A stretch of DNA of 64,000 nt, from assembly GCA_020241125.1 (NCBI GenBank), contig GCA_020241125.1_4708.1, one strand, 5' to 3'. The DNA is from a phage. The notes under the pieces are model-generated. The model did not search any database. It saw only the letters and a program-made list of their open reading frames with translations, and had not been told where the DNA came from. Each line of letters opens with the position of its first letter. Positions within the stretch are counted from its first letter, which is position 1. The translations under genes and the position numbers were made by a program. This document shows positions 41,751 to 53,138 of the stretch, piece after piece.

Positions 41751-44543
41751 TTATCTTACGTTAGTGTTATTCTGTTGTTCACTGAACCAACCATACACCT
41801 TGAGATCGGTACCGTATCTCAGTGCGATATACGCATTCAGCGCAGCACAGAACAAAGACGCGAATGCCCATATCAGCGAAGGATCAACATCTTCCGTTAC
41901 CACTGGGAGAGTATTATCCGGTTCCCATGATGGTGAACTGTCCATGAACGTTGCGTACCATCCCCGCCGTTGTTCTTCAGTGGTAAAGTCGCTATGAGGT
42001 TCCAACGCTTCTTTTGCCAGACGTCGATATTCGAACATATGCGTTGCTAAAGCCGATGAGTTACCAGATTCGCCTTCATAGTTCGGATCCACCGCATAAC
42101 AGAGTTCTGTTGAATCTAACAAAGCAACCGCCTGTGTGATGCTGTCGGCAGTACCTGCACCATAGAGCTCGATAGACCGCGAAAGCTTCTCACAGAACGC
42201 ATTTAACGCGGAAGGATTGGACACCTGAAGGTCAAGGCCTAATGTCCACGGATAGTTACTGAATACACCCGTAAACCGCGGCATAACACCCAACAGATGT
42301 TGTCCGATTACAGCACGGTTATAAACAGCCCTGTTATAGACTTGAAACGCAGCCTCCAGGGCTTGGTTATAATGACGACGAAGTTCGTCACGCGAGTTGC
42401 GGAATCTGTTTGCCGCAAGACTCGTGGCTGCGACGCTACAAACATCGTAATTGGTGGACGAGAGCACAACTTCGTTAAGATCGAACGCTTCCTGTTTCAA
42501 TGTTCCGCTAACAGCCGCTGCTTCGCTGTTCGCTTTATCGACAACTGTACTCAAAGCGTTAATATAACGTTTAGCTCGGACTTCCAACCATTGTGCGATA
42601 CCGAGAATATCCACCGCAGCTTTAGCAAGATCGCGTGCGTTCACGATTTCGTTCTTCAAAGCCCCTAAACCTTTATTTTCAGGCGATGAGGCTTGTTGAC
42701 GAATCATGCTGTTTAACATGGTAAGCAGATTATCCAGCTCATGTCCGCTGACCTTGTTGCGCGCATCGGTAATCGGCCCTTGCAGGAATTTACGGCAACC
42801 ATCGTTGTATCGAATCAGTTTATCCACATCGATAGATTCGTTCGTGGATTCCTTGAACTGATCCTTCAATTCTTCACGGTAGTCATGGATTTCACTTGCG
42901 AGATTATCGATAGTGATACCGTTATGTCCAAGAAGAACTTTATTGAAGTTACCTTTCTCGAATGCCAGAGCAAGACCTTCACGAATCTTAGCGAGTTTAT
43001 CCTGATCGAGTTCACGACCGTTCGATAGCTCTTTCACTTCCGAGCTGATTAATGCCGAAACGTTACCCAGATTGTCGGTAACCCCTTTGAACGCTCCCGA
43101 CCAGATCGTTCCTGCTTCAGCATATTTCGCAATGGTCTGAATACCGACGGTGTGCAGCGACGCTAAACGTTTCTTCGTGCCTTCGGTAAGCAGAGCGTCT
43201 TTAGCTCGCGTAAGCTGACTGTTATTAGCTTCCGCCTGCTGAATCGCTGCTTTCGCACTTCCATTACGCCAGCTCTTAACTAACCAATCAACCAAACGTT
43301 TTAGGATATTGACGGTGTATTCCATTGTCCGCCGTAACGTTTCCCACGCGCTTTCTGCGGTATAGATGCCGTACCCTTCCATCTTCGTTGGGTCAAAGAA
43401 ACCTTCCTGCACGAGATCGATACGTGTGTAGCCATCAGCAGCTTCTACTTCCGCCTGGGTTTTATCCCAGAAGTCGTCGCTCTTTGCAGCAATCGCTGTA
43501 TCTTTAACGTCCAGGATGATCTGACCAACCGTTTGTGCAAACAGCAAGGCCGCACGTACCGATTGTGCGAACATCCGCTGATATTTGATTCGAACGCATT
43601 GCATCTGGGTTAGCAGATTCAGTTGTGCGATCCCATCCAAGGTGCTATCCTGAGCAAGCCCTTCGGCTTTAGCGATAACCTGTTTTACACGTTCAGCGAC
43701 ATCACCGTACTGCTGGCAAACATCCCGCAGAATACGTGTTGCGAAGACCCCGGTACCGATATAGTTCAATAGGTCTTTTAACGACCATTCGGTCGGACAA
43801 TCGGTCGGCGCAATAGGGAGTAAGCAACCATCACCGTCCATGAATCTCTCTAATGCGCTAATATCCTGATTTTCTACGCTCATGGGGATATCGACATCAG
43901 CCGCTTGCAGATCCAGCATCTGTTGTAGGATGTTGGTATCGGCTTGTACAAGCGTCGCAAGCGCTTGGCTGTGTGCGATTATTGGTAACGCAGGCGACCA
44001 TACTGCAGCAAGCTTGTCGGCGTGACGTTGAATGGCATACCCCATATCCTCGATCACATCGGGATGCTCGATAACCCCCTGAAGCGTTTGATGTAGCTCA
44101 CCGAGTTGCTGAGACAGATCGACCATCATGGTGTTGAAGGTTTCGCCATCCTCTTTGTGGTTGTCCAGACGCTCGAGTTCATGTCGAAGCAATATGACGA
44201 GCTGTCCGTTGCCTTCTTGCTTCAGCTTGCTTTCCATTAACGTAATGGCTTTATCGACGATCTGGCACGCTTCACGAAAACCGGTTGTGGAAGGAAGCTC
44301 TGTCCATAACGCCAGCGGTTTACCGTCAAGGGCTTCCGGCATCGATAACGAAAGCATAGACAGTTGTTGACGTGATACTTGCTGTTCACAGTGTAATGTT
44401 TCTTTTAACGCCAGGAGATCGTCAAGAAACGCGCCGTTAAGGGTGGTCGTACGCGGTGTTGAATTAATACCGTCAGTTAACGATTCAAGCACCAGGAGAC
44501 CGTTATCAGCTGAAGAGAGTCCCGCGGCAAGATATTTGTTCAT
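41751..44543 (-). CDS. large hypothetical alpha-helical protein (930 aa)
   Basis: Long ORF; GGAG SD. Confidence 0.85.
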   Translation of the reverse strand: MNKYLAAGLSSADNGLLVLESLTDGINSTPRTTTLNGAFLDDLLALKETLHCEQQVSRQQLSMLSLSMPEALDGKPLALWTELPSTTGFREACQIVDKAITLMESKLKQEGNGQLVILLRHELERLDNHKEDGETFNTMMVDLSQQLGELHQTLQGVIEHPDVIEDMGYAIQRHADKLAAVWSPALPIIAHSQALATLVQADTNILQQMLDLQAADVDIPMSVENQDISALERFMDGDGCLLPIAPTDCPTEWSLKDLLNYIGTGVFATRILRDVCQQYGDVAERVKQVIAKAEGLAQDSTLDGIAQLNLLTQMQCVRIKYQRMFAQSVRAALLFAQTVGQIILDVKDTAIAAKSDDFWDKTQAEVEAADGYTRIDLVQEGFFDPTKMEGYGIYTAESAWETLRRTMEYTVNILKRLVDWLVKSWRNGSAKAAIQQAEANNSQLTRAKDALLTEGTKKRLASLHTVGIQTIAKYAEAGTIWSGAFKGVTDNLGNVSALISSEVKELSNGRELDQDKLAKIREGLALAFEKGNFNKVLLGHNGITIDNLASEIHDYREELKDQFKESTNESIDVDKLIRYNDGCRKFLQGPITDARNKVSGHELDNLLTMLNSMIRQQASSPENKGLGALKNEIVNARDLAKAAVDILGIAQWLEVRAKRYINALSTVVDKANSEAAAVSGTLKQEAFDLNEVVLSSTNYDVCSVAATSLAANRFRNSRDELRRHYNQALEAAFQVYNRAVYNRAVIGQHLLGVMPRFTGVFSNYPWTLGLDLQVSNPSALNAFCEKLSRSIELYGAGTADSITQAVALLDSTELCYAVDPNYEGESGNSSALATHMFEYRRLAKEALEPHSDFTTEEQRRGWYATFMDSSPSWEPDNTLPVVTEDVDPSLIWAFASLFCAALNAYIALRYGTDLKVYGWFSEQQNNTNVR

Positions 44544-44558
44544 AAAACACTCCGTTGG

Positions 44559-44589
44559 CCTAGGGGAAGGTTTTCAGCCTTCCCCTAGG
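44559..44589 (-). terminator. intercistronic perfect 12-bp hairpin (distinct sequence)
   Basis: CCTAGGGGAAGG-TTTTCAG-CCTTCCCCTAGG between 44603 stop and 44543 start. Confidence 0.45.
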
Positions 44590-44602
44590 GTTATAAACAC
44601 AA

Positions 44603-47398
44603 TTAAGCTAATTTACCGAAACCGGCTTTCTGCAGTTTCTCGTTGATGATTTTCGCTTCAGCGAAGACGTAATCGCGGTAGGCGGTCACTAACGCATCCA
44701 CACGTGAACGCAAGGCTTCTTCGAAGCTATACCACGCTGCGATTTCACGAATCTGTGCGTTGATATAATCAACGGTTGAGCGAAGCTCGGTTGCGTTTTC
44801 TTGCGGAACGGCTTTCACCTGGCGAGCAACGTCATTTAAACGGCGGAACTGTGTTTCGATTTCTTTAAACTTACTGTCGGCAAGTTTGCTGAATTCGTCA
44901 CCAGAACGGGTAAATAACAGATAGCTGTTGCCGTCAAGTGCGGTCGCTAACTGCTGAAGTACGTTGGTGTCCGGATACACAGGAGTACCGCTTTGCAGTA
45001 CTTTCTCACCGAATTCCGCGAAGTCCTTCGGTGGTAAGTGTGCAGACGTTGTCAATTCGTTGAAACGGAAAGTCAGCGAATTATCATACAGCATCCGGTA
45101 CGCTTCCATACCCTGTTTCATGGTACCGGCCAGGTTAGCCAGACGCGGAGCAATCTCGCCTTCTTTAGCGCGTTTCTGGTCTTCTAACGCCCCTTCGAGT
45201 TCTTTACACTGGTCGTTCAGATACACGATACGATCAGGACGTAGACGACGCATCTCACGAAGAATAGTATCCAGCTTACCTTCCTGGAAATAACCCAACG
45301 TTAAAGACGTACACGCTTGCTGAAGACGATCGAACACCGGTAAGGTTACCATCTCCTTACGGATACCATCAACAATCGCAGAAACAGCCGAAAGTTTCTG
45401 TTCTGTAGTCAATGGAACATCAGAGGCCGACTTGCTGGGTGCACCAACAACGTTACGCATTGCGTCGGTATCCTCGGTTTTATCAACCTCTTTACGAACA
45501 TGCTCATCAGGAACATAAACGTTCGCGTTACGTTTCGCCTGCTTGATGGCGTCGTTGGCCGCTTTTTCGGTGGCCGCTACGCTATCGGCACGTTTCTTCA
45601 AGAGTTCAATAATCCAGAGCAACAGACGACGAATCGCAGTGTAGGCTGTCGTGATGATGACACCGATAACAGCCATCTTCATGATACCGAACGATTCCAT
45701 GGTCGGCTCTAACGCTTGGTCTGGCATATACCGTTCACGCAGCTCCAGATAGATCTGCTCATCTGGTTTGCTGACCTCACCACGATGCGAAGTCCGATAA
45801 ATGGCTTCGTCAATCTCAACAAGATCTTTGCGTGCCTGACGGTCAGATTCTGTTAGGTAAGCACAACCGGATACGTCGTCTTCGAAGCTTAAGAATTTGA
45901 AAAAGTCACTGACGTCGATCTTGATCTTCTTCGCTTCATTATCGACATCGATAACATCTTTTTTCTGTGCCTGATATTCCGCTTTGATGTCGTTCACCGG
46001 CTTCAACGCACGTTCTTTTAATACCTGCACGATCTGTTTCCAGTCGGCGTCACGCTCAAGAACAAGGAAGTAATTCTTGAGTTCAAAAGCACGGTAACGC
46101 GCAACGAGTTGTTCTACCTGAATATGAGCGAGTTGCACATCCATCAGCCAACGCGACATTGCTGAGATCAAACGGCTATAAGCAAGCAATGTCTGATATG
46201 TTAGCTTCATGTGCTTTTCGTACAGCTCAATATCGCCGTCTTGAATATCAGCCGTTGGGTTCATTTCCTTCGTTGCTTTGAAGATCTGTTCGGCCTCATT
46301 TAACGTTTGTTCGAATTTGACTTCATTAAACGTGTCAAACGGTTCAGCCAACTCCATCATTCGATCGTGAAGCTCACGAACCCAGGCTTCCTTATTGTTG
46401 CGAATAGCTGCGTCATCGTGAAGTTCAGTTTGATGTTTCTGTACCCATTCTTCGACGATATCAGCGGCGGCAACAATTCCTGTACCATCGGAAACTAACG
46501 GAACAACTCCAGCAAGTACGCCTACACACGCCGGGGTTTTCCAATAATCGTTCAAAGCGTTTCTGAATTCAACGATGGATTGTACGTTTGGTACCGTATC
46601 CAAAAACGTACTGCCGTTACGGCTCATTGTCGTTACGATATCAGCGAATTCCTTCTGCTTAGCGGTAACAAAAGGAACCAGGACCATAAGCCATTCAGCA
46701 ACCGACTTCGCTTTCTCTTTCAGATTTTTGTCAGCGATTTCCTTAAGGTTTATCGCACCACCGTAACCTGCAAGCTCTTTATATACGTCGCTAAGGGTCA
46801 TCTGTTTATCCAACATTTCTTTGAAACGTGGGTAATCAGCACCTAACGCATCGACAATATCGTTGATTACGTCATCAGTTGTTGCGATAAACTTCTTCGT
46901 ATCAACGTTTGAATATTTCCAGACGTATCGTACTGCTTTCTTGATTCCTGCAAAGATAAACGCCCAGATACGCTTGATGAGTTCCCAGACTTTCTTCGCG
47001 CCATCGACAAACAGTTTAGAGACCTTGGCAACGAATCCTTCCTGCACCAATTCAACGCCGTTACGTGATGGGATTTCCGTGAAGAAAGCATCCGGCAGTT
47101 GTTTCGGGAATGCGTCACCAAGACGCATACGCAGTTCCGGTACATCAGCACGAGAAATACCGCGTGTTACTAATTGTTCGTGAAGACGAACGTTTTCTTC
47201 ACCAGAGGTCACGAATTCGTCAACATCGAAGGAGACCATTGTTTCCTGATCTTCGGTGGTAACGACGCTTGAACCATCACTGGTTTGGATGTCTTCGTCA
47301 GGGAATGCCATGAGCATACCGTGACGCATTTCAACCACCCCGTAATCGGTTGCTAAACCGAATTCGTTGTGGTCTGGGGTAATAACTGGGATACTCAT
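44603..47398 (-). CDS. large hypothetical protein with internal hydrophobic helix (931 aa)
   Basis: Long ORF; hydrophobic segment MKMAVIGVIITTAYTAIRRLLLWIIELL. Confidence 0.85.
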   Translation of the reverse strand: MSIPVITPDHNEFGLATDYGVVEMRHGMLMAFPDEDIQTSDGSSVVTTEDQETMVSFDVDEFVTSGEENVRLHEQLVTRGISRADVPELRMRLGDAFPKQLPDAFFTEIPSRNGVELVQEGFVAKVSKLFVDGAKKVWELIKRIWAFIFAGIKKAVRYVWKYSNVDTKKFIATTDDVINDIVDALGADYPRFKEMLDKQMTLSDVYKELAGYGGAINLKEIADKNLKEKAKSVAEWLMVLVPFVTAKQKEFADIVTTMSRNGSTFLDTVPNVQSIVEFRNALNDYWKTPACVGVLAGVVPLVSDGTGIVAAADIVEEWVQKHQTELHDDAAIRNNKEAWVRELHDRMMELAEPFDTFNEVKFEQTLNEAEQIFKATKEMNPTADIQDGDIELYEKHMKLTYQTLLAYSRLISAMSRWLMDVQLAHIQVEQLVARYRAFELKNYFLVLERDADWKQIVQVLKERALKPVNDIKAEYQAQKKDVIDVDNEAKKIKIDVSDFFKFLSFEDDVSGCAYLTESDRQARKDLVEIDEAIYRTSHRGEVSKPDEQIYLELRERYMPDQALEPTMESFGIMKMAVIGVIITTAYTAIRRLLLWIIELLKKRADSVAATEKAANDAIKQAKRNANVYVPDEHVRKEVDKTEDTDAMRNVVGAPSKSASDVPLTTEQKLSAVSAIVDGIRKEMVTLPVFDRLQQACTSLTLGYFQEGKLDTILREMRRLRPDRIVYLNDQCKELEGALEDQKRAKEGEIAPRLANLAGTMKQGMEAYRMLYDNSLTFRFNELTTSAHLPPKDFAEFGEKVLQSGTPVYPDTNVLQQLATALDGNSYLLFTRSGDEFSKLADSKFKEIETQFRRLNDVARQVKAVPQENATELRSTVDYINAQIREIAAWYSFEEALRSRVDALVTAYRDYVFAEAKIINEKLQKAGFGKLA

Positions 47399-47835
47399 GC
47401 ATTCTCTCCTTGCAGTGCGTTAGCGAAAGCCGTTGCGAGTTGCGCAACCAGCTTAGGATCAACACCTTCGATAACGTCGGGCAGCCCTGCGGTTTCTTGG
47501 TCACGAACGGCGGAGGCTAATAACAGCATGGTTTCAGGTGCGGTCGGCTCATGCACCATGCGGTAACGCAGGCACCAGAAGTAGCGGGCAACGTCTAACG
47601 CATCGGCCAGCCCAATAACCAGTACCTTGTTCAGCTTATCCAGCCCTTCACGGATTTTAGGGAGATGTTCGCGAACGAAAATGCTATCTGCGGTCAGATC
47701 TTCTTTTTCAGCGAATACGGGCATGCTGTAACCAGCGATATAACCTGCGGCAATACTTAGCGCACGGGTCTGTTGTTCGGCTGGGAAATCACGTACCAGG
47801 TCTTTCAGCTGAACGGCGAAATCAGAAATATTCAT
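47395..47835 (-). CDS. hypothetical protein (146 aa)
   Basis: ORF; 4-nt overlap with upstream gene. Confidence 0.65.
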   Translation of the reverse strand: MNISDFAVQLKDLVRDFPAEQQTRALSIAAGYIAGYSMPVFAEKEDLTADSIFVREHLPKIREGLDKLNKVLVIGLADALDVARYFWCLRYRMVHEPTAPETMLLLASAVRDQETAGLPDVIEGVDPKLVAQLATAFANALQGENA

Positions 47836-47867
47836 GTTAAATTCCTTTATAGTAAAAATAGAAGAGA

Positions 47868-49178
47868 TTAGGCGATAATGGAGTCAAGAGTCGCTGCGGT
47901 TTTGAACAGATCGCTGTTCATTGTAGAAGAAAGGACTTGCTGAATTTCTTCCTGTTTAACCGCTTTACGAACCCCAGGACGAAGGATAAGCGTAACCATC
48001 TGTGAAAAGGTACGATTATTGTTCATCGCACTCAGCGTTTCATCGATTGTTTTGATGGCATCCAGCGTCATGGAACGAACATCGCTTGGGATATCACGAT
48101 CTTTCAAGCGTATAATTAAATCTTGTTTGATTTTACGGAATCGTTCCATGTCGTTATCGTAAATGCTGTATGTCGGATCTAACCAAACAGAAAGCGCGGT
48201 TACAGCGACAACAACCAACACGCCGATAGCACCAACAGAAGCTAAACCTATCGCCATCATAGAAGCTATAGTAGCATCCATGATGAAGGAGAGCCAGAAC
48301 ATCGTTTTGGACTTCACGGAGTCTTTGCTATAAAGCCGATACATTTTAGCAAGCCCGCTAACGAGATACTCCCCACCGCCATGACGCGTAGCGAACTGAT
48401 CAGCCATGAATTCGGAAGCAACGTCGGTATATCGTCCAGCGTTGTTTACGTTTCTTAACTGCATCGCTCTGTTAGACACGTAAACCGTGTACCAGACACT
48501 ACCGTCGTCTGAATCACTGATTTTGTCTACGTCGACGTTGGTATCCAACGTTTTGTTTAACGCTTTCGCCAGTTCGATACGTTTTACCTTATCGGTTGTC
48601 CCCAACAGTTCACGCTGTACGGTCATGATTGAGGCTTCGACACGAACCGTTTCCGACAATGTTTCAAGGAAGGTAAATGCGTGCCCGATTTCATGCAGCA
48701 TTATGGCTGCTTTTTCTTCCGGAAGAAAGGGTTCTGTCGCCGTTAGCAGTTCATACGTGATGGCAGAACGAATCTTCAATTCTTCAAAAATACCGTAAAC
48801 ACGACCTTTTTCTAAATCGACGTAACCGACAGGTGTATCTTTAATCTTCTTAAGGAGCGTAACACCATCAGCACCGCGCATCCATAACCGATGATAGTCT
48901 GCCAGGATTGTGTTGTTTGTCGAAATATCCGGCGGGTACACGTAGGCATTCATCCGGCCCATTTTCACGTCGACCGAGAATTCGATGTTCAACCCCGTAT
49001 AGCGTTTAACCATCTCGGTTAAACGACCGTCCTTGAAAACGTTTAAAACCTCTTTTTTATCCAGTCCCTGTTTGCTTCTGAAGAACTCGGTCATTTCCTT
49101 GAACAAGGAACCATCTTGAAACTTGATGGCCTCCATCGTTAATTCGTCATGACCATACACGCGTTGTAGTAATGACAT
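47868..49178 (-). CDS. putative membrane-associated HExxH zinc metallopeptidase, possibly M48/HtpX-like (436 aa)
   Basis: HEIGH motif (AAIMLHEIGHAF); candidate third-ligand Glu ~85 aa later (SEFMADQ); hydrophobic stretch FWLSFIMDATIASMMAIGLASVGAIGVLVVVAVTALSVWL. Confidence 0.6.
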   Translation of the reverse strand: MSLLQRVYGHDELTMEAIKFQDGSLFKEMTEFFRSKQGLDKKEVLNVFKDGRLTEMVKRYTGLNIEFSVDVKMGRMNAYVYPPDISTNNTILADYHRLWMRGADGVTLLKKIKDTPVGYVDLEKGRVYGIFEELKIRSAITYELLTATEPFLPEEKAAIMLHEIGHAFTFLETLSETVRVEASIMTVQRELLGTTDKVKRIELAKALNKTLDTNVDVDKISDSDDGSVWYTVYVSNRAMQLRNVNNAGRYTDVASEFMADQFATRHGGGEYLVSGLAKMYRLYSKDSVKSKTMFWLSFIMDATIASMMAIGLASVGAIGVLVVVAVTALSVWLDPTYSIYDNDMERFRKIKQDLIIRLKDRDIPSDVRSMTLDAIKTIDETLSAMNNNRTFSQMVTLILRPGVRKAVKQEEIQQVLSSTMNSDLFKTAATLDSIIA

Positions 49179-49399
49179 TGTACACTCTCTAAATTTACGT
49201 AAATTTAAGGGTTCATGGATCGGCTGGCCGCACCAATCACAATGTGTCCGCTGCTATGCAACGGCATTCATAGAAATACCTTTTGACGGTAACATCACCG
49301 TTCATACCCCAAGCAATAAGAGTGGTCGGTTAAAAACAACAGAACGTGAGGATGATATAGAAAATCACCTTTTAACACTTATTACGAGTTTATCAAGCC

Positions 49400-51151
49400 A
49401 TGAGCGAACAAGAACGAAAACCTAAGAAGAAACTGCTCGGTATTCAATGTCGACACATCAGCTATAACGAAGCGAACGATGGCAGCAAGAACGACCTCAT
49501 GATCGCAAAAGAGATCATGTTCTTCGATGATAATACGCAAGCGACGAACCTTCGCTTCTTCGAGAATTACAAACGTCCGTTTTGGGTGACGGTAGAGAGT
49601 AAACGTAAGAACAAATATAAAAAGGAAAGCGAGAAGCTCTCGCATGTGCGTCGCTACGATGTCCGCCAAAGCGAACTGGTTGAAAAGATCAGCTCGGTAC
49701 TTTATAAAAGACGTGCTGACGATAACACCCGTTTACAGCAGCTTGCACGGAGTCCATACCTCTATGGAACGGACGTTAGCGCCAGCTGTTATTTAAAAAC
49801 CCAGTACAACACAAAATGGCCGGAATACGTCGATAAATTACCCGCTTCCATTGCCTGTTTCGATATCGAAACCGACGTTGTCCACGGACACGGTAAGATC
49901 GTTTGTATGTCTATTACAATGGGATACAATGCGATACTTTGCTATACCAAGGACTTCGTTGGTCATATTCCGAATGCCATTGAGAAAACCCATGAGAAGA
50001 TTCGATATTACCTGGCCGAACGTCTGAATACCAAAGAAGATCCCCACGCATTCGAAAAATATCAGTACGATGTTCGAATCGTAGAAAGCCCGGCACAAGC
50101 GGTCATCCAATGCATGCAGAAGGTTCACGAATGGCAGCCGGATTATCTCCTTGGCTGGAATATCGCGTTCGATATTCCGCGCATGCTCCAGGCACTGAAC
50201 GAGGAAGGGTATCGTCCCGAGGATGTTTTCTCCGATCCCCGTATACCACCTAAATATCGTATTGCTCGCTGGGTACCACCGAAGACCGACAAGGTATCTG
50301 CTTCAGGTCGTAAAACCAACCTTACCCTTGAGCAAACCTGGCCGATGTTTTATACGATGGCTACGTATCAGGTTATGGATGCGATGTGTGGCTATAAGTT
50401 CGTTCGTTTAGGAAGACCGGATGAAGGACGCTATTCACTCGATGCGGTGTTAGAGCGAAATAAATGCCATACGAAATTAAAAGCTATTCCTGGTACAGAG
50501 GGGTTCACGGAGCTTGCCTGGCACGAAGAGATGCAAACGAACCATCAAATCGACTACGGCGTATATAACCTTTGGGATAACCAGGGTATTGAGGCGTTGG
50601 ACCAGAAAACAAAAGACTATTCGATGACCATCCCTATCCGTTTAGCGGCGTCGGATTTGAAAGATTTCAGTTCTAACCCTAAACGTATCTGCGATAAACT
50701 TTTCTTCGTTTATCTTAACCGTGGGGAAGTCATGGGATGTACCGCTGACGACATGACCCAGGAAGAAGATAAGTGGGTTATCTCACGAGCTGGACATATC
50801 GTCACATTACCATGCGATCTCATGGCTGACAACGGCATTCATCTCTTCTGGGATATGCCGAACCTGAGAAGTTATATCCGTCTATTCGTTGCAGACCTTG
50901 ACATTAGCAGTTCATACCCGAATGGGCAGATCCTGTTGAATCTATCCAGAGCGTGTGTTTTTCGCGAGCTCTCACGCATTGAGGGCGTCTCTGACTATCA
51001 ATTCAGGAAGTTAGGTATCAACTTTATTACCGGAGGTAAAACGAACGCTGTAGACTTCTGTAGAATCGTTTATAAAGCACCATCGATGTTTGAACTTTTA
51101 GAACATTTCGATGCAACGCGTCCAAAAGAGGAAGCGCGGACCATCGAATGA
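49400..51151 (+). CDS. family-B DNA polymerase N-terminal fragment: 3'-5' exonuclease domain plus polymerase motif A (583 aa)
   Basis: Exo I ACFDIETD, Exo II YLLGWNIAFDIPRML, Exo III YSLDAVLER, motif A DISSSYPN, degenerate motif B-like KLGINFITGG; ORF ends before any motif C (YGDTDS). Confidence 0.75.
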   Translation: MSEQERKPKKKLLGIQCRHISYNEANDGSKNDLMIAKEIMFFDDNTQATNLRFFENYKRPFWVTVESKRKNKYKKESEKLSHVRRYDVRQSELVEKISSVLYKRRADDNTRLQQLARSPYLYGTDVSASCYLKTQYNTKWPEYVDKLPASIACFDIETDVVHGHGKIVCMSITMGYNAILCYTKDFVGHIPNAIEKTHEKIRYYLAERLNTKEDPHAFEKYQYDVRIVESPAQAVIQCMQKVHEWQPDYLLGWNIAFDIPRMLQALNEEGYRPEDVFSDPRIPPKYRIARWVPPKTDKVSASGRKTNLTLEQTWPMFYTMATYQVMDAMCGYKFVRLGRPDEGRYSLDAVLERNKCHTKLKAIPGTEGFTELAWHEEMQTNHQIDYGVYNLWDNQGIEALDQKTKDYSMTIPIRLAASDLKDFSSNPKRICDKLFFVYLNRGEVMGCTADDMTQEEDKWVISRAGHIVTLPCDLMADNGIHLFWDMPNLRSYIRLFVADLDISSSYPNGQILLNLSRACVFRELSRIEGVSDYQFRKLGINFITGGKTNAVDFCRIVYKAPSMFELLEHFDATRPKEEARTIE

Positions 51152-52306: not shown

Positions 52307-52705
52307 TTATGCTTCGCAATCAGCTGAAGGCGTCGCGCCTTTCTTACCAGCGATACGCCAAATCCGACACGCTGGGTAATGGTTAACCTCTAGAGAGCAA
52401 GGAATGTTATATTTCTCTTCCAGCGCATAAAGACATTTCGTTAGCTGCTCCAGCGCGTTCTCGTCGTGTCGTAACGCGTGGTGGCCTAATCGATGTTGGT
52501 CGTTCTTTATATACGCCTCGAAGAGAACATGTTGGCGATGTACGCTGACGTTTACAGCCTCGAGTATAGCTTGGTCGAGCATACGACTAAAGCACATCAA
52601 CGAGTCAGATACGTTTTCTCGCTTAACCAGATCGATCATGGCGGGAATATACGAATGGTCGATGTTATCGATGACCGCTTTAGCGACGGAATCAGCAACG
52701 TTCAT
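52307..52705 (-). CDS. hypothetical small protein (132 aa), tandem paralog of 52743..53138
   Basis: Shares VKAVxDNIDH and EEKYNIPxSLEVN blocks with the next gene. Confidence 0.7.
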   Translation of the reverse strand: MNVADSVAKAVIDNIDHSYIPAMIDLVKRENVSDSLMCFSRMLDQAILEAVNVSVHRQHVLFEAYIKNDQHRLGHHALRHDENALEQLTKCLYALEEKYNIPCSLEVNHYPACRIWRIAGKKGATPSADCEA

Positions 52706-52742: not shown

Positions 52743-53138
52743 TTACTCTTTGACGTCAGTTGTCGTTTCGACATGCTTCTCACTACTGACGTACCAGAGC
52801 AGGTACGCTGGGAAAAGATTGACCTCTAAGCTAAATGGGATATTGTATTTCTCTTCCATTTTACAGAGATGTTCTTTAAGTAAATTTCTCGCGTCTCTGT
52901 CACCACGAACAGAGTGCCAGTCTAGTTCTTTGTTCTCCTTTACCAGGACCTCTACGATGATACGTTGCTCGTGAACCTCGGTTTTCACAGTGAAAAGTAA
53001 ATCGCTGCTATCCAAACGGGTAAAACGAATGTATGAACCAGGTGTTTTTTCTTGTTTAATAATATCGATCATGGTAGAAATGCGCGGATGATCGATGTTG
53101 TCGTTAACAGCTTTAACGATGGATTCTACAATGCTCAT
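52743..53138 (-). CDS. hypothetical small protein (131 aa), tandem paralog of 52307..52705
   Basis: Shares conserved blocks with previous gene. Confidence 0.7.
   Translation of the reverse strand: MSIVESIVKAVNDNIDHPRISTMIDIIKQEKTPGSYIRFTRLDSSDLLFTVKTEVHEQRIIVEVLVKENKELDWHSVRGDRDARNLLKEHLCKMEEKYNIPFSLEVNLFPAYLLWYVSSEKHVETTTDVKE

Follow-up and report, generated by a model that had tools for sequence, protein, structure and literature searches.

A predicted M48-type metallopeptidase encoded by a core head-protein gene of nucleus-forming jumbo phages

Zinc metallopeptidases of family M48 (PF01435) are represented in cells by HtpX, BepA, LoiP, YcaL, Ste24/ZMPSTE24 and Oma1. They are gluzincins marked by an HExxH motif on one helix and an ExxAD-type glutamate on a downstream helix; HtpX has two transmembrane (TM) helices in its N-terminal part and two more between the motifs, and Ste24 forms a chamber of seven TM helices. 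Here we analyzed an open reading frame (ORF) at positions 47868..49178 on the minus strand of a 64,000-nucleotide stretch of phage DNA (contig GCA_020241125.1_4708.1 of assembly GCA_020241125.1; this whole stretch is called the window). The ORF encodes 436 aa plus stop, with the ATG start at the 49178 side, and its boundaries, which had been given in a preliminary description made from the letters alone, were reproduced exactly by translation. The product is the orthologue of Goslar gp67, phiKZ gp84, SPN3US gp45 and RAY gp286, and it is very likely a highly divergent M48-type gluzincin.

In comparison with the cellular M48 enzymes the window protein is very divergent. A helical insert of ~60 residues lengthens the spacing between the two motifs, and the TM helices that HtpX carries before and between its motifs are absent, as are the 7-TM chamber of Ste24 and the signal peptide and TPR domain of BepA. 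The window protein has one hydrophobic segment after the catalytic region and a unique helical C-terminal domain of 100 aa. An HtpX-like integral membrane architecture had been suggested in the preliminary description and is not supported, as there is one hydrophobic region only, C-terminal to both motifs. Unlike the cellular enzymes, the window protein is encoded by a virus and belongs to a family that is packaged in the capsid.

Two kinds of phage head proteins can also be compared with it. The internal proteins of T4 (e.g. IPI*) share with the gp84 family a short N-terminal peptide (10-20 residues) cut by the prohead protease, and the gp84 family is likewise an internal head protein of low to moderate copy number; however, the T4 proteins are small, soluble, non-enzymatic or anti-restriction and are ejected with the DNA, whereas the window protein is a 47-kDa predicted protease with a putative hydrophobic anchor. 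The prohead protease (phiKZ gp175, SPN3US gp245) is a head protease, as the window protein is predicted to be, but it is serine-type and cleaves after S/A/G-X-E, and the gp84 family is its substrate in SPN3US and not its relative. What is new here is the predicted combination: a known catalytic scaffold that lies between a targeting propeptide and a C-terminal anchor with a helical domain, and that is found inside a virus capsid.

Family membership and requirement for the gene

Over the 8 kb surrounding the ORF, the window shares 92% identity with Escherichia phage vB_EcoM_Goslar, one of the nucleus-forming jumbo phages (Chimalliviridae), and the ORF product has 91% aa identity to Goslar_00067 (Goslar gp67), which is labelled 'hypothetical protein' in the Goslar record. 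Full-length relatives at 20-28% identity were found by tblastn in 218 phage records, and among the matches listed all belong to phiKZ-like jumbo phages of Pseudomonas, Erwinia, Salmonella, Serratia, Ralstonia, Vibrio and others. phiKZ gp84 (PHIKZ084), whose record notes 'structural head protein', is the orthologue by homology and synteny, and SPN3US gp45 is matched over its whole length (BLASTP E 4e-25). In the supplementary table of Prichard et al. 2023, Goslar gp067, phiKZ gp084 and RAY gp286 are listed together as core gene cg22 and described as 'putative virion structural protein'. The product was also assigned to PHROG 2767, labelled as function unknown (E 6e-82, residues 12-432). A profile search of 1.84 billion cluster representatives gave 1,749 members at E 1e-30 or better, and nearly all of the 150 cluster representatives listed are 410-455 aa long.

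With its full-length homology and its place between the DNA polymerase gene and the gp85/gp86 homologues that lie downstream, the window protein is a clear member of the cg22/phiKZ gp84 family. phiKZ gp84, SPN3US gp45, RAY gp286 and Goslar gp67 have the same full-length homology, synteny and motifs, and no structural difference separates them from the window protein. Pfam contains families for gp85 and for gp86 and none for gp84. A few automated GenBank labels read 'beta-barrel assembly-enhancing protease', e.g. in Salmonella phage MET_P1_082_240 and Proteus phage 7. In the accessible literature no functional statement was found for the phiKZ gp84/Goslar gp67 family, including any that names a metalloprotease or BepA.

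The gene is present in every chimallivirus and is one of 72 core genes. In the filtered transposon table of phiKZ, 0 insertions are counted in PHIKZ084 (1,242 bp), as in chmA and the major capsid gene, vs 15 in the dispensable gene for gp93; in the unfiltered table PHIKZ084 has 10 reads, which is the noise level, vs 3,762 for gp93 (PMC12676376). With one insertion per 42 bp genome-wide (PMC12676376), ~30 insertions would be expected in PHIKZ084. The gp84 family protein is probably essential.

The M48-like catalytic domain

The predicted catalytic domain covers residues 17-285 (48324..49130, minus strand); N-terminal helices and a beta-sheet lead into the long active-site helix, and the glutamate helix comes after a helical insert. 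The HEIGH motif stands at residues 162-166 (48681..48695, minus strand), where H162 and H166 are the two predicted zinc-binding histidines and E163 the predicted catalytic glutamate. The second motif, EFMADQF, is of the ExxAD type and lies at residues 256-262 (48393..48413, minus strand; E256, D260, F262), with E256 as the predicted third zinc ligand. Both motifs had been noted in the preliminary description, in which SEFMADQ was placed about 85 residues after HEIGH; HEIGH was found again as described and so was SEFMADQ (residues 255-261), with the spacing corrected to 89 residues beyond the end of HEIGH. Chance can be excluded for HEIGH, because only 0.003 occurrences of HExxH are expected from the protein's own composition.

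The catalytic region is conserved throughout the family. When 26 sequences with identities as low as 20% were aligned, the invariant columns of this region were H162, E163, G165, H166, E256, D260, F262 and G267. HExxH followed by a downstream ExxxDx[FYWL] was present in 189/189 family representatives, which are spread at 25% identity or less, with a median distance of 95 residues from the start of HExxH to the downstream Glu. Conservation is highest in the two motif-bearing helices, with an entropy of 1.7-1.9 bits vs 2.4-3.0 elsewhere. The presence of H, E, H and the distal E/D in all representatives, with the catalytic helices most conserved, is a signature of selection on catalysis; judged from these alignments, the active site is under strong purifying selection.

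Another acidic residue, E172 (48663-48665, minus strand), lies six residues past H166 (HEIGHAFTFLE) and is at least 90% conserved in the family. It was considered as a third ligand in the manner of metzincins and was set aside: the predicted helix is continuous through E172, no Gly is present at +3, and the M48 alignments put the ligand at E256, so that E172 is unlikely to be the third zinc ligand. Near this position the cellular M48 enzymes usually have His or Asp (HExxHxxxxH/D; E. coli alignment).

The relationship with M48 was seen in several searches. When the family profile was compared with all PDB sequences, human ZMPSTE24 was matched (E 0.0015); in this alignment the family stretch '...EEiaAilLHEiGHa' falls on 'EEVLAVLGHELGHW' and the family stretch 'tssEflADqFAtRhGaGrdLvtaLdKlnk' falls on the region with the Glu415 motif (EFQAD). 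HEIGH is aligned with HELGH of ZMPSTE24 and HEISH of HtpX, and SRHREFHAD of HtpX (E222) with EFMADQF, both motifs being aligned weakly by HMMER. E222, A225 and D226 are invariant among four E. coli M48 enzymes (HtpX, BepA, LoiP and YcaL), and we take E415 of ZMPSTE24 and E222 of HtpX to be the zinc ligands in the published structures. With members scanned singly, Peptidase_M48 was the only Pfam family matched repeatedly (15/26 members, E up to 1). The scores of the family fall on both sides of the PF01435 gathering threshold of 20.3 bits: member P0043 reached 24.6 bits over profile positions 38-171 of 186, and SPN3US gp45 (17.7 bits) and the members P0029, P0031 and P0039 (16-18 bits) remained below it. 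In hhalign at default settings, an alignment of the E. coli enzymes HtpX, BepA, LoiP and YcaL was matched with a probability of 85% (E 7e-6) over the strand-plus-HExxH segment only, and the Glu motif was aligned with E. coli M48 only in relaxed or alternative alignments and in weak HMMER domains.

Structure prediction by AlphaFold2 (AF2) gave a whole-protein model (pLDDT 74, pTM 0.75) and a model of residues 17-288 (pLDDT 83.7, pTM 0.81). Both combine a small beta-sheet with two long helices, the active-site helix and a second one bearing E256, and with a helical insert; HEIGH lies within predicted helix 153-193. Both M48 hallmarks, HExxH on a helix and an ExxAD-type Glu on a downstream helix, were found, and the M48/minigluzincin catalytic fold is judged to be present, on fold evidence that is itself marginal. 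For peptidase family M56 (BlaR1/MecR1), neither a profile match nor a sensor domain was found. The gluzincin, M48-like reading of the preliminary description has held up through the motif conservation, the ZMPSTE24 profile match and the M48 Pfam matches within the family.

Head packaging, membrane segment and possible mode of action

The head protein gp45 of SPN3US is processed by the serine prohead protease gp245 and loses a short N-terminal propeptide. This propeptide has 20 residues in most passages (the Discussion of the 2023 paper swaps 20 and 24 between gp45 and gp225), and the SPN3US authors liken it to the capsid-targeting sequences of T4. In the window protein, residues 1-16 (MSLLQRVYGHDELTME; 49131..49178, minus strand) are a probable propeptide or capsid-targeting peptide with a predicted cut at T-M-E16|A17. 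E16 is at least 90% conserved in the 26-sequence alignment and is followed by A/S-I. Among the 189 members, 179 have x-x-E and then A/S near residue 12, and P3 is S/A/T/G in 166 of the 179. This P3 pattern and E16 match the S/A/G-X-E specificity of prohead proteases, which is the cleavage motif of phiKZ (PMC10449902), and judged by the motif residues 1-16 are probably removed by the serine prohead protease in the window phage.

In a cryo-EM and proteomics preprint on Goslar, 19 peptides covering 47% of gp067 were detected in virions purified on CsCl, and its copy number was estimated at ~48 per virion (range 32-76); gp067 lies outside the atomic model, is unannotated in the table and is never mentioned in the text (10.64898/2026.04.21.720040). 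The protein is very probably head-packaged and N-terminally processed. The window protein gave no match to the phiKZ-type serine prohead protease profile, and its SPN3US orthologue is a gp245 substrate, in agreement with the earlier opinion that it is unlikely to be the head-maturation enzyme.

A metagenomic homologue of 1237 aa (P0161) looks like a fusion. It has a complete gp84-like module at residues 812-1228, preceded by ~800 residues with two hydrophobic segments, and a site of the prohead-protease type, LPGME|SIDH, is retained at the junction. Its use as a 'Rosetta stone' was given up, as the N-terminal 800 aa have no detectable similarity to the vertex-complex protein of the window and no informative Pfam matches; P0161 may be genuinely fused or may owe its length to faulty gene calling.

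The hydrophobic segment M293-L333 (41 aa; 48180..48302, minus strand) is a putative membrane anchor, in which AF2 places helices 291-314 and 316-333. It corresponds to the stretch of about 40 residues that had been noticed after the catalytic region in the preliminary description. It begins ~31 residues past the Glu motif, its hydropathy (Kyte-Doolittle) averages up to 2.57 over 19 residues, and no charge is found in the 32 residues A302-L333. A hydrophobic segment follows the Glu motif in 188/189 representatives, starting at a median of 39 residues past the Glu. Compared with the other regions of the protein, this region has the top mean hydropathy (+1.63), the top entropy (2.95 bits) and the most indels and gaps, a pattern which is expected for lipid-facing helices and not for a conserved buried core; the buried core had been named beforehand as the outcome that would speak against a membrane protein. 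Most relatives have an amphipathic helix with a conserved E-A-x-K and then a single uncharged stretch (17-30 residues) whose centre holds a Pro or Gly. The Goslar group has a longer uncharged stretch (32 residues) and two helices in AF2. By the length of this stretch, 47 members have <26 residues, 63 have 26-33 and 69 have >=34. The segment could be a single transmembrane span or a tight helical hairpin, and insertion of the window protein into a membrane seems moderately likely. Against Pfam the window protein itself gave sub-threshold SCAMP and CASP matches only, both on this segment. The C-terminal helical domain (residues 338-436; 47871..48167, minus strand) opens with a conserved Y340-D motif and R346; its entropy of 2.37 bits makes it more conserved than the N-domain, and it matched no known family in the family-library searches.

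A mode of action can be proposed as follows. A divergent M48-type (gluzincin) zinc metallopeptidase would be made from an apparent operon of inner-vertex (vertex-binding-complex) proteins and packaged inside the phage head, where the serine prohead protease would trim residues 1-16 at T-M-E16, the peptide being possibly a capsid-targeting signal, and a few dozen copies would remain in the mature capsid. In the catalytic domain (17-285), zinc would be held by H162, H166 and E256, with E163 as the general base. At infection the protein would leave the capsid together with the DNA and other ejected proteins, and segment 293-333 would anchor it in the inner-membrane-derived early-infection (EPI) vesicle or in the inner membrane. 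Its targets there may be one or more proteins close to the membrane, either of the host envelope or of the phage and ejected along with it, and their cleavage would be required for a productive infection. Taken as a whole, this chain of a head-packaged M48-like protease which is ejected and acts at the EPI vesicle or inner membrane falls just short of being probable, and its last part, action after ejection at the vesicle or inner membrane, is put forward tentatively and is somewhat doubtful. From the evidence above we infer zinc binding, catalysis, membrane insertion, ejection, the site of action and the substrates.

These phages deliver their genome and virion proteins into an inner-membrane-derived EPI vesicle. 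A role at the entry stage is favoured because a bilayer-type segment has no obvious purpose in a membrane-free capsid, because the substrates of the cellular M48 enzymes are, to our knowledge, all proteins of the envelope or of membranes, because SPN3US gp47 of the neighbouring locus is an essential, TM-bearing, presumed ejection protein, and because the vRNAP of phage N4 gives a precedent of an ejected protein with a conserved HExxH. SPN3US gp47 with its TM helix and the C-terminal domain of N4 vRNAP with its HExxH are both head-packaged and are proposed to act on the envelope on entry; the window protein is likened to them by these features alone. It is doubtful that the ejected, membrane-anchored M48 protease is a core and essential part of chimallivirus entry which inserts in the EPI vesicle. 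In such a role its proteolysis would be required for one of three steps: building or stabilising the vesicle, clearing captured host envelope proteins from it (e.g. nucleases or defence sensors), or opening it so that the genome passes to the nascent phage nucleus.

Several results weigh against the proposed chain. The window protein had no Pfam M48 match even at E up to 10 and no useful NCBIfam match, phmmer against PDB likewise gave nothing, and Foldseek against PDB gave no significant match with the full model or the re-predicted catalytic-domain model. In phiKZ, orf85-86 are also insertion-free and yet can be deleted, and the essentiality of orf84 is judged from insertions only (PMC12676376). 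Ejection is a presumed step, gp67 and gp84 being outside the sets of proteins assayed for injection in Goslar and phiKZ.

This last point would also suit a protein that stays in the capsid with the vertex-binding complex, as a second metal-dependent processing enzyme or an assembly factor whose hydrophobic segment packs against head proteins and never meets a membrane. The two genes that follow the ORF point in the same direction. The homologue of Goslar gp66/phiKZ gp85 (146 aa; 47395..47835, minus strand) lies downstream after a 32-nt gap, and the homologue of Goslar gp65, an enlarged phiKZ gp86 (931 aa; 44603..47398, minus strand), overlaps gp66 by 4 nt. In the Goslar capsid, gp66 and gp65 are components of the vertex binding complex, which sits on the inside at every vertex other than the portal (10.64898/2026.04.21.720040). 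The 'virion-type gene block' of the preliminary description was therefore a correct name. The ORF is co-oriented and apparently co-transcribed with both, the synteny is kept at 28% identity or less, and the Goslar copy number is compatible with 55, i.e. one copy per vertex-complex unit. Unassigned helical density surrounds the vertex complex in the Goslar map, but the authors liken it to the PF12699 fold (10.64898/2026.04.21.720040) and not to gp67.

A second processing enzyme is, however, hardly called for by the cleavage data: all mapped SPN3US head cleavage sites are attributed to gp245, the phiKZ sites fit S/A/G-X-E, and the SPN3US head-processing paper mentions no second protease. As orf85-86 of phiKZ can be deleted and orf84 is insertion-free, the vertex complex does not account for the importance of orf84. 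The hydrophobic region is also the least conserved part in sequence and length, unlike a specific interface. A role confined to the capsid, although the strongest of the alternatives, is regarded as unlikely on these grounds.

It is also conceivable that the segment tethers nascent procapsids or the core to the inner membrane during assembly, and that proteolysis then releases or remodels the particle. The capsids of these phages reportedly assemble on the membrane before they are trafficked to the nucleus, and the protein is a head component with a membrane-type hydrophobic segment. However, it stays in mature virions, and as SPN3US shows only the short N-terminal cleavage, the extraction of the segment from the membrane would be unexplained; ~50 copies do not agree with single-vertex stoichiometry, and the invariant active site finds no explanation. 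Such a tether is improbable. A non-catalytic structural protein on a zincin-like scaffold, which would suit the 'virion structural protein' labels of databases and papers and the marginal fold evidence, or a late regulator of lysis, as the preliminary description had proposed among other roles, is very improbable, in view of the catalytic residues kept in every representative on the most conserved helices and, for lysis, of head packaging and a location in a head-gene block and not in a lysis cassette.

For the proposed ejected M48-like protease, the interest lies in the first steps of infection. The genome of nucleus-forming jumbo phages is first housed in a membrane vesicle, whose formation, exchange and genome release are listed as open questions, and the proteins which travel with the phage DNA are mostly without an assigned function. 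The link of the window protein to this entry vesicle is inferred. By the present prediction, one of the 72 core genes gains a falsifiable biochemical identity as a zinc protease with a membrane anchor, for which the point mutations H162A, E163Q and E256A and metal chelators as inhibitors can be used as handles. If it acts at the vesicle, it would open a way into vesicle biology, and host defences directed at the vesicle might target it or be countered by it; it would also be without precedent, both as an enzyme of EPI-vesicle biology and as an M48 protease injected by a phage. If it acts in the capsid, there would be a second proteolytic activity in the assembly of giant-phage heads. In either case the annotation 'virion structural protein' is due for replacement.

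Gene neighbourhood and further observations

The homologue of Goslar gp64 (930 aa; 41751..44543, minus strand) follows gp65 in the same orientation after a 59-nt gap, and the DNA polymerase gene (583 aa; 49400..51151, plus strand) is divergent from the metallopeptidase-like gene. No minus-strand terminator-like site was found in the scanned interval 44400-49500; with the co-orientation, this indicates that the genes for gp67, gp66, gp65 and gp64 are probably co-transcribed. Sigma-70 promoter and terminator candidates were no more frequent than expected from shuffling, and in these phages transcription is by RNA polymerases of their own.

The order of DNA polymerase (opposite strand), gp84-like gene, PhiKZ_gp85 (PF25615), PhiKZ_gp86 (PF25617) and gp87-like gene (opposite strand) is retained in metagenomic relatives with only 28-29% identity to the window protein, and synteny around the gp84 homologue was also seen in Goslar, phiKZ and SPN3US. 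The Goslar gp66 homologue (47395-47835) gave no PF25615 match at E up to 0.1, whereas the neighbours of distant metagenomic gp84-like genes do carry the PF25615 label; as gp66 is assigned to phiKZ gp85 by structure, the gp66 of the Goslar group seems unusually divergent. gp64 and gp65 are adjacent, co-oriented and almost equal in length (930 and 931 aa), and BLASTP gave no sign that they are paralogues; gp64 has no family match at all. gp65 contains hydrophobic stretches of its own, e.g. MKMAVIGVIITTAYTAI. In one distant relative (L009 7780-10561, L010 6614-9395) a small Phage_gp49_66 gene (PF13876) lies between gp85 and gp86, and two tandem PhiKZ_gp86 genes of 401 and 411 aa are present, whereas Goslar has a single enlarged gp86 homologue.

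The DNA polymerase of the window phage (49400-51151) is a single intact ORF. In Goslar (L001 8269-11779) it is split after residue 499 by ~1.76 kb with the NUMOD1/HNH homing-endonuclease gene Goslar_00069, and both Goslar halves are 99% identical to the polymerase encoded in the window, so the window phage is without this mobile (intron-like) insertion. Further along, two adjacent ORFs of ~131 aa each (52307-52705 and 52743-53138, both minus strand) look like tandem paralogues and share an N-terminal 'KAV.DNIDH' and a C-terminal 'EEKYNIP.SLEVN'.

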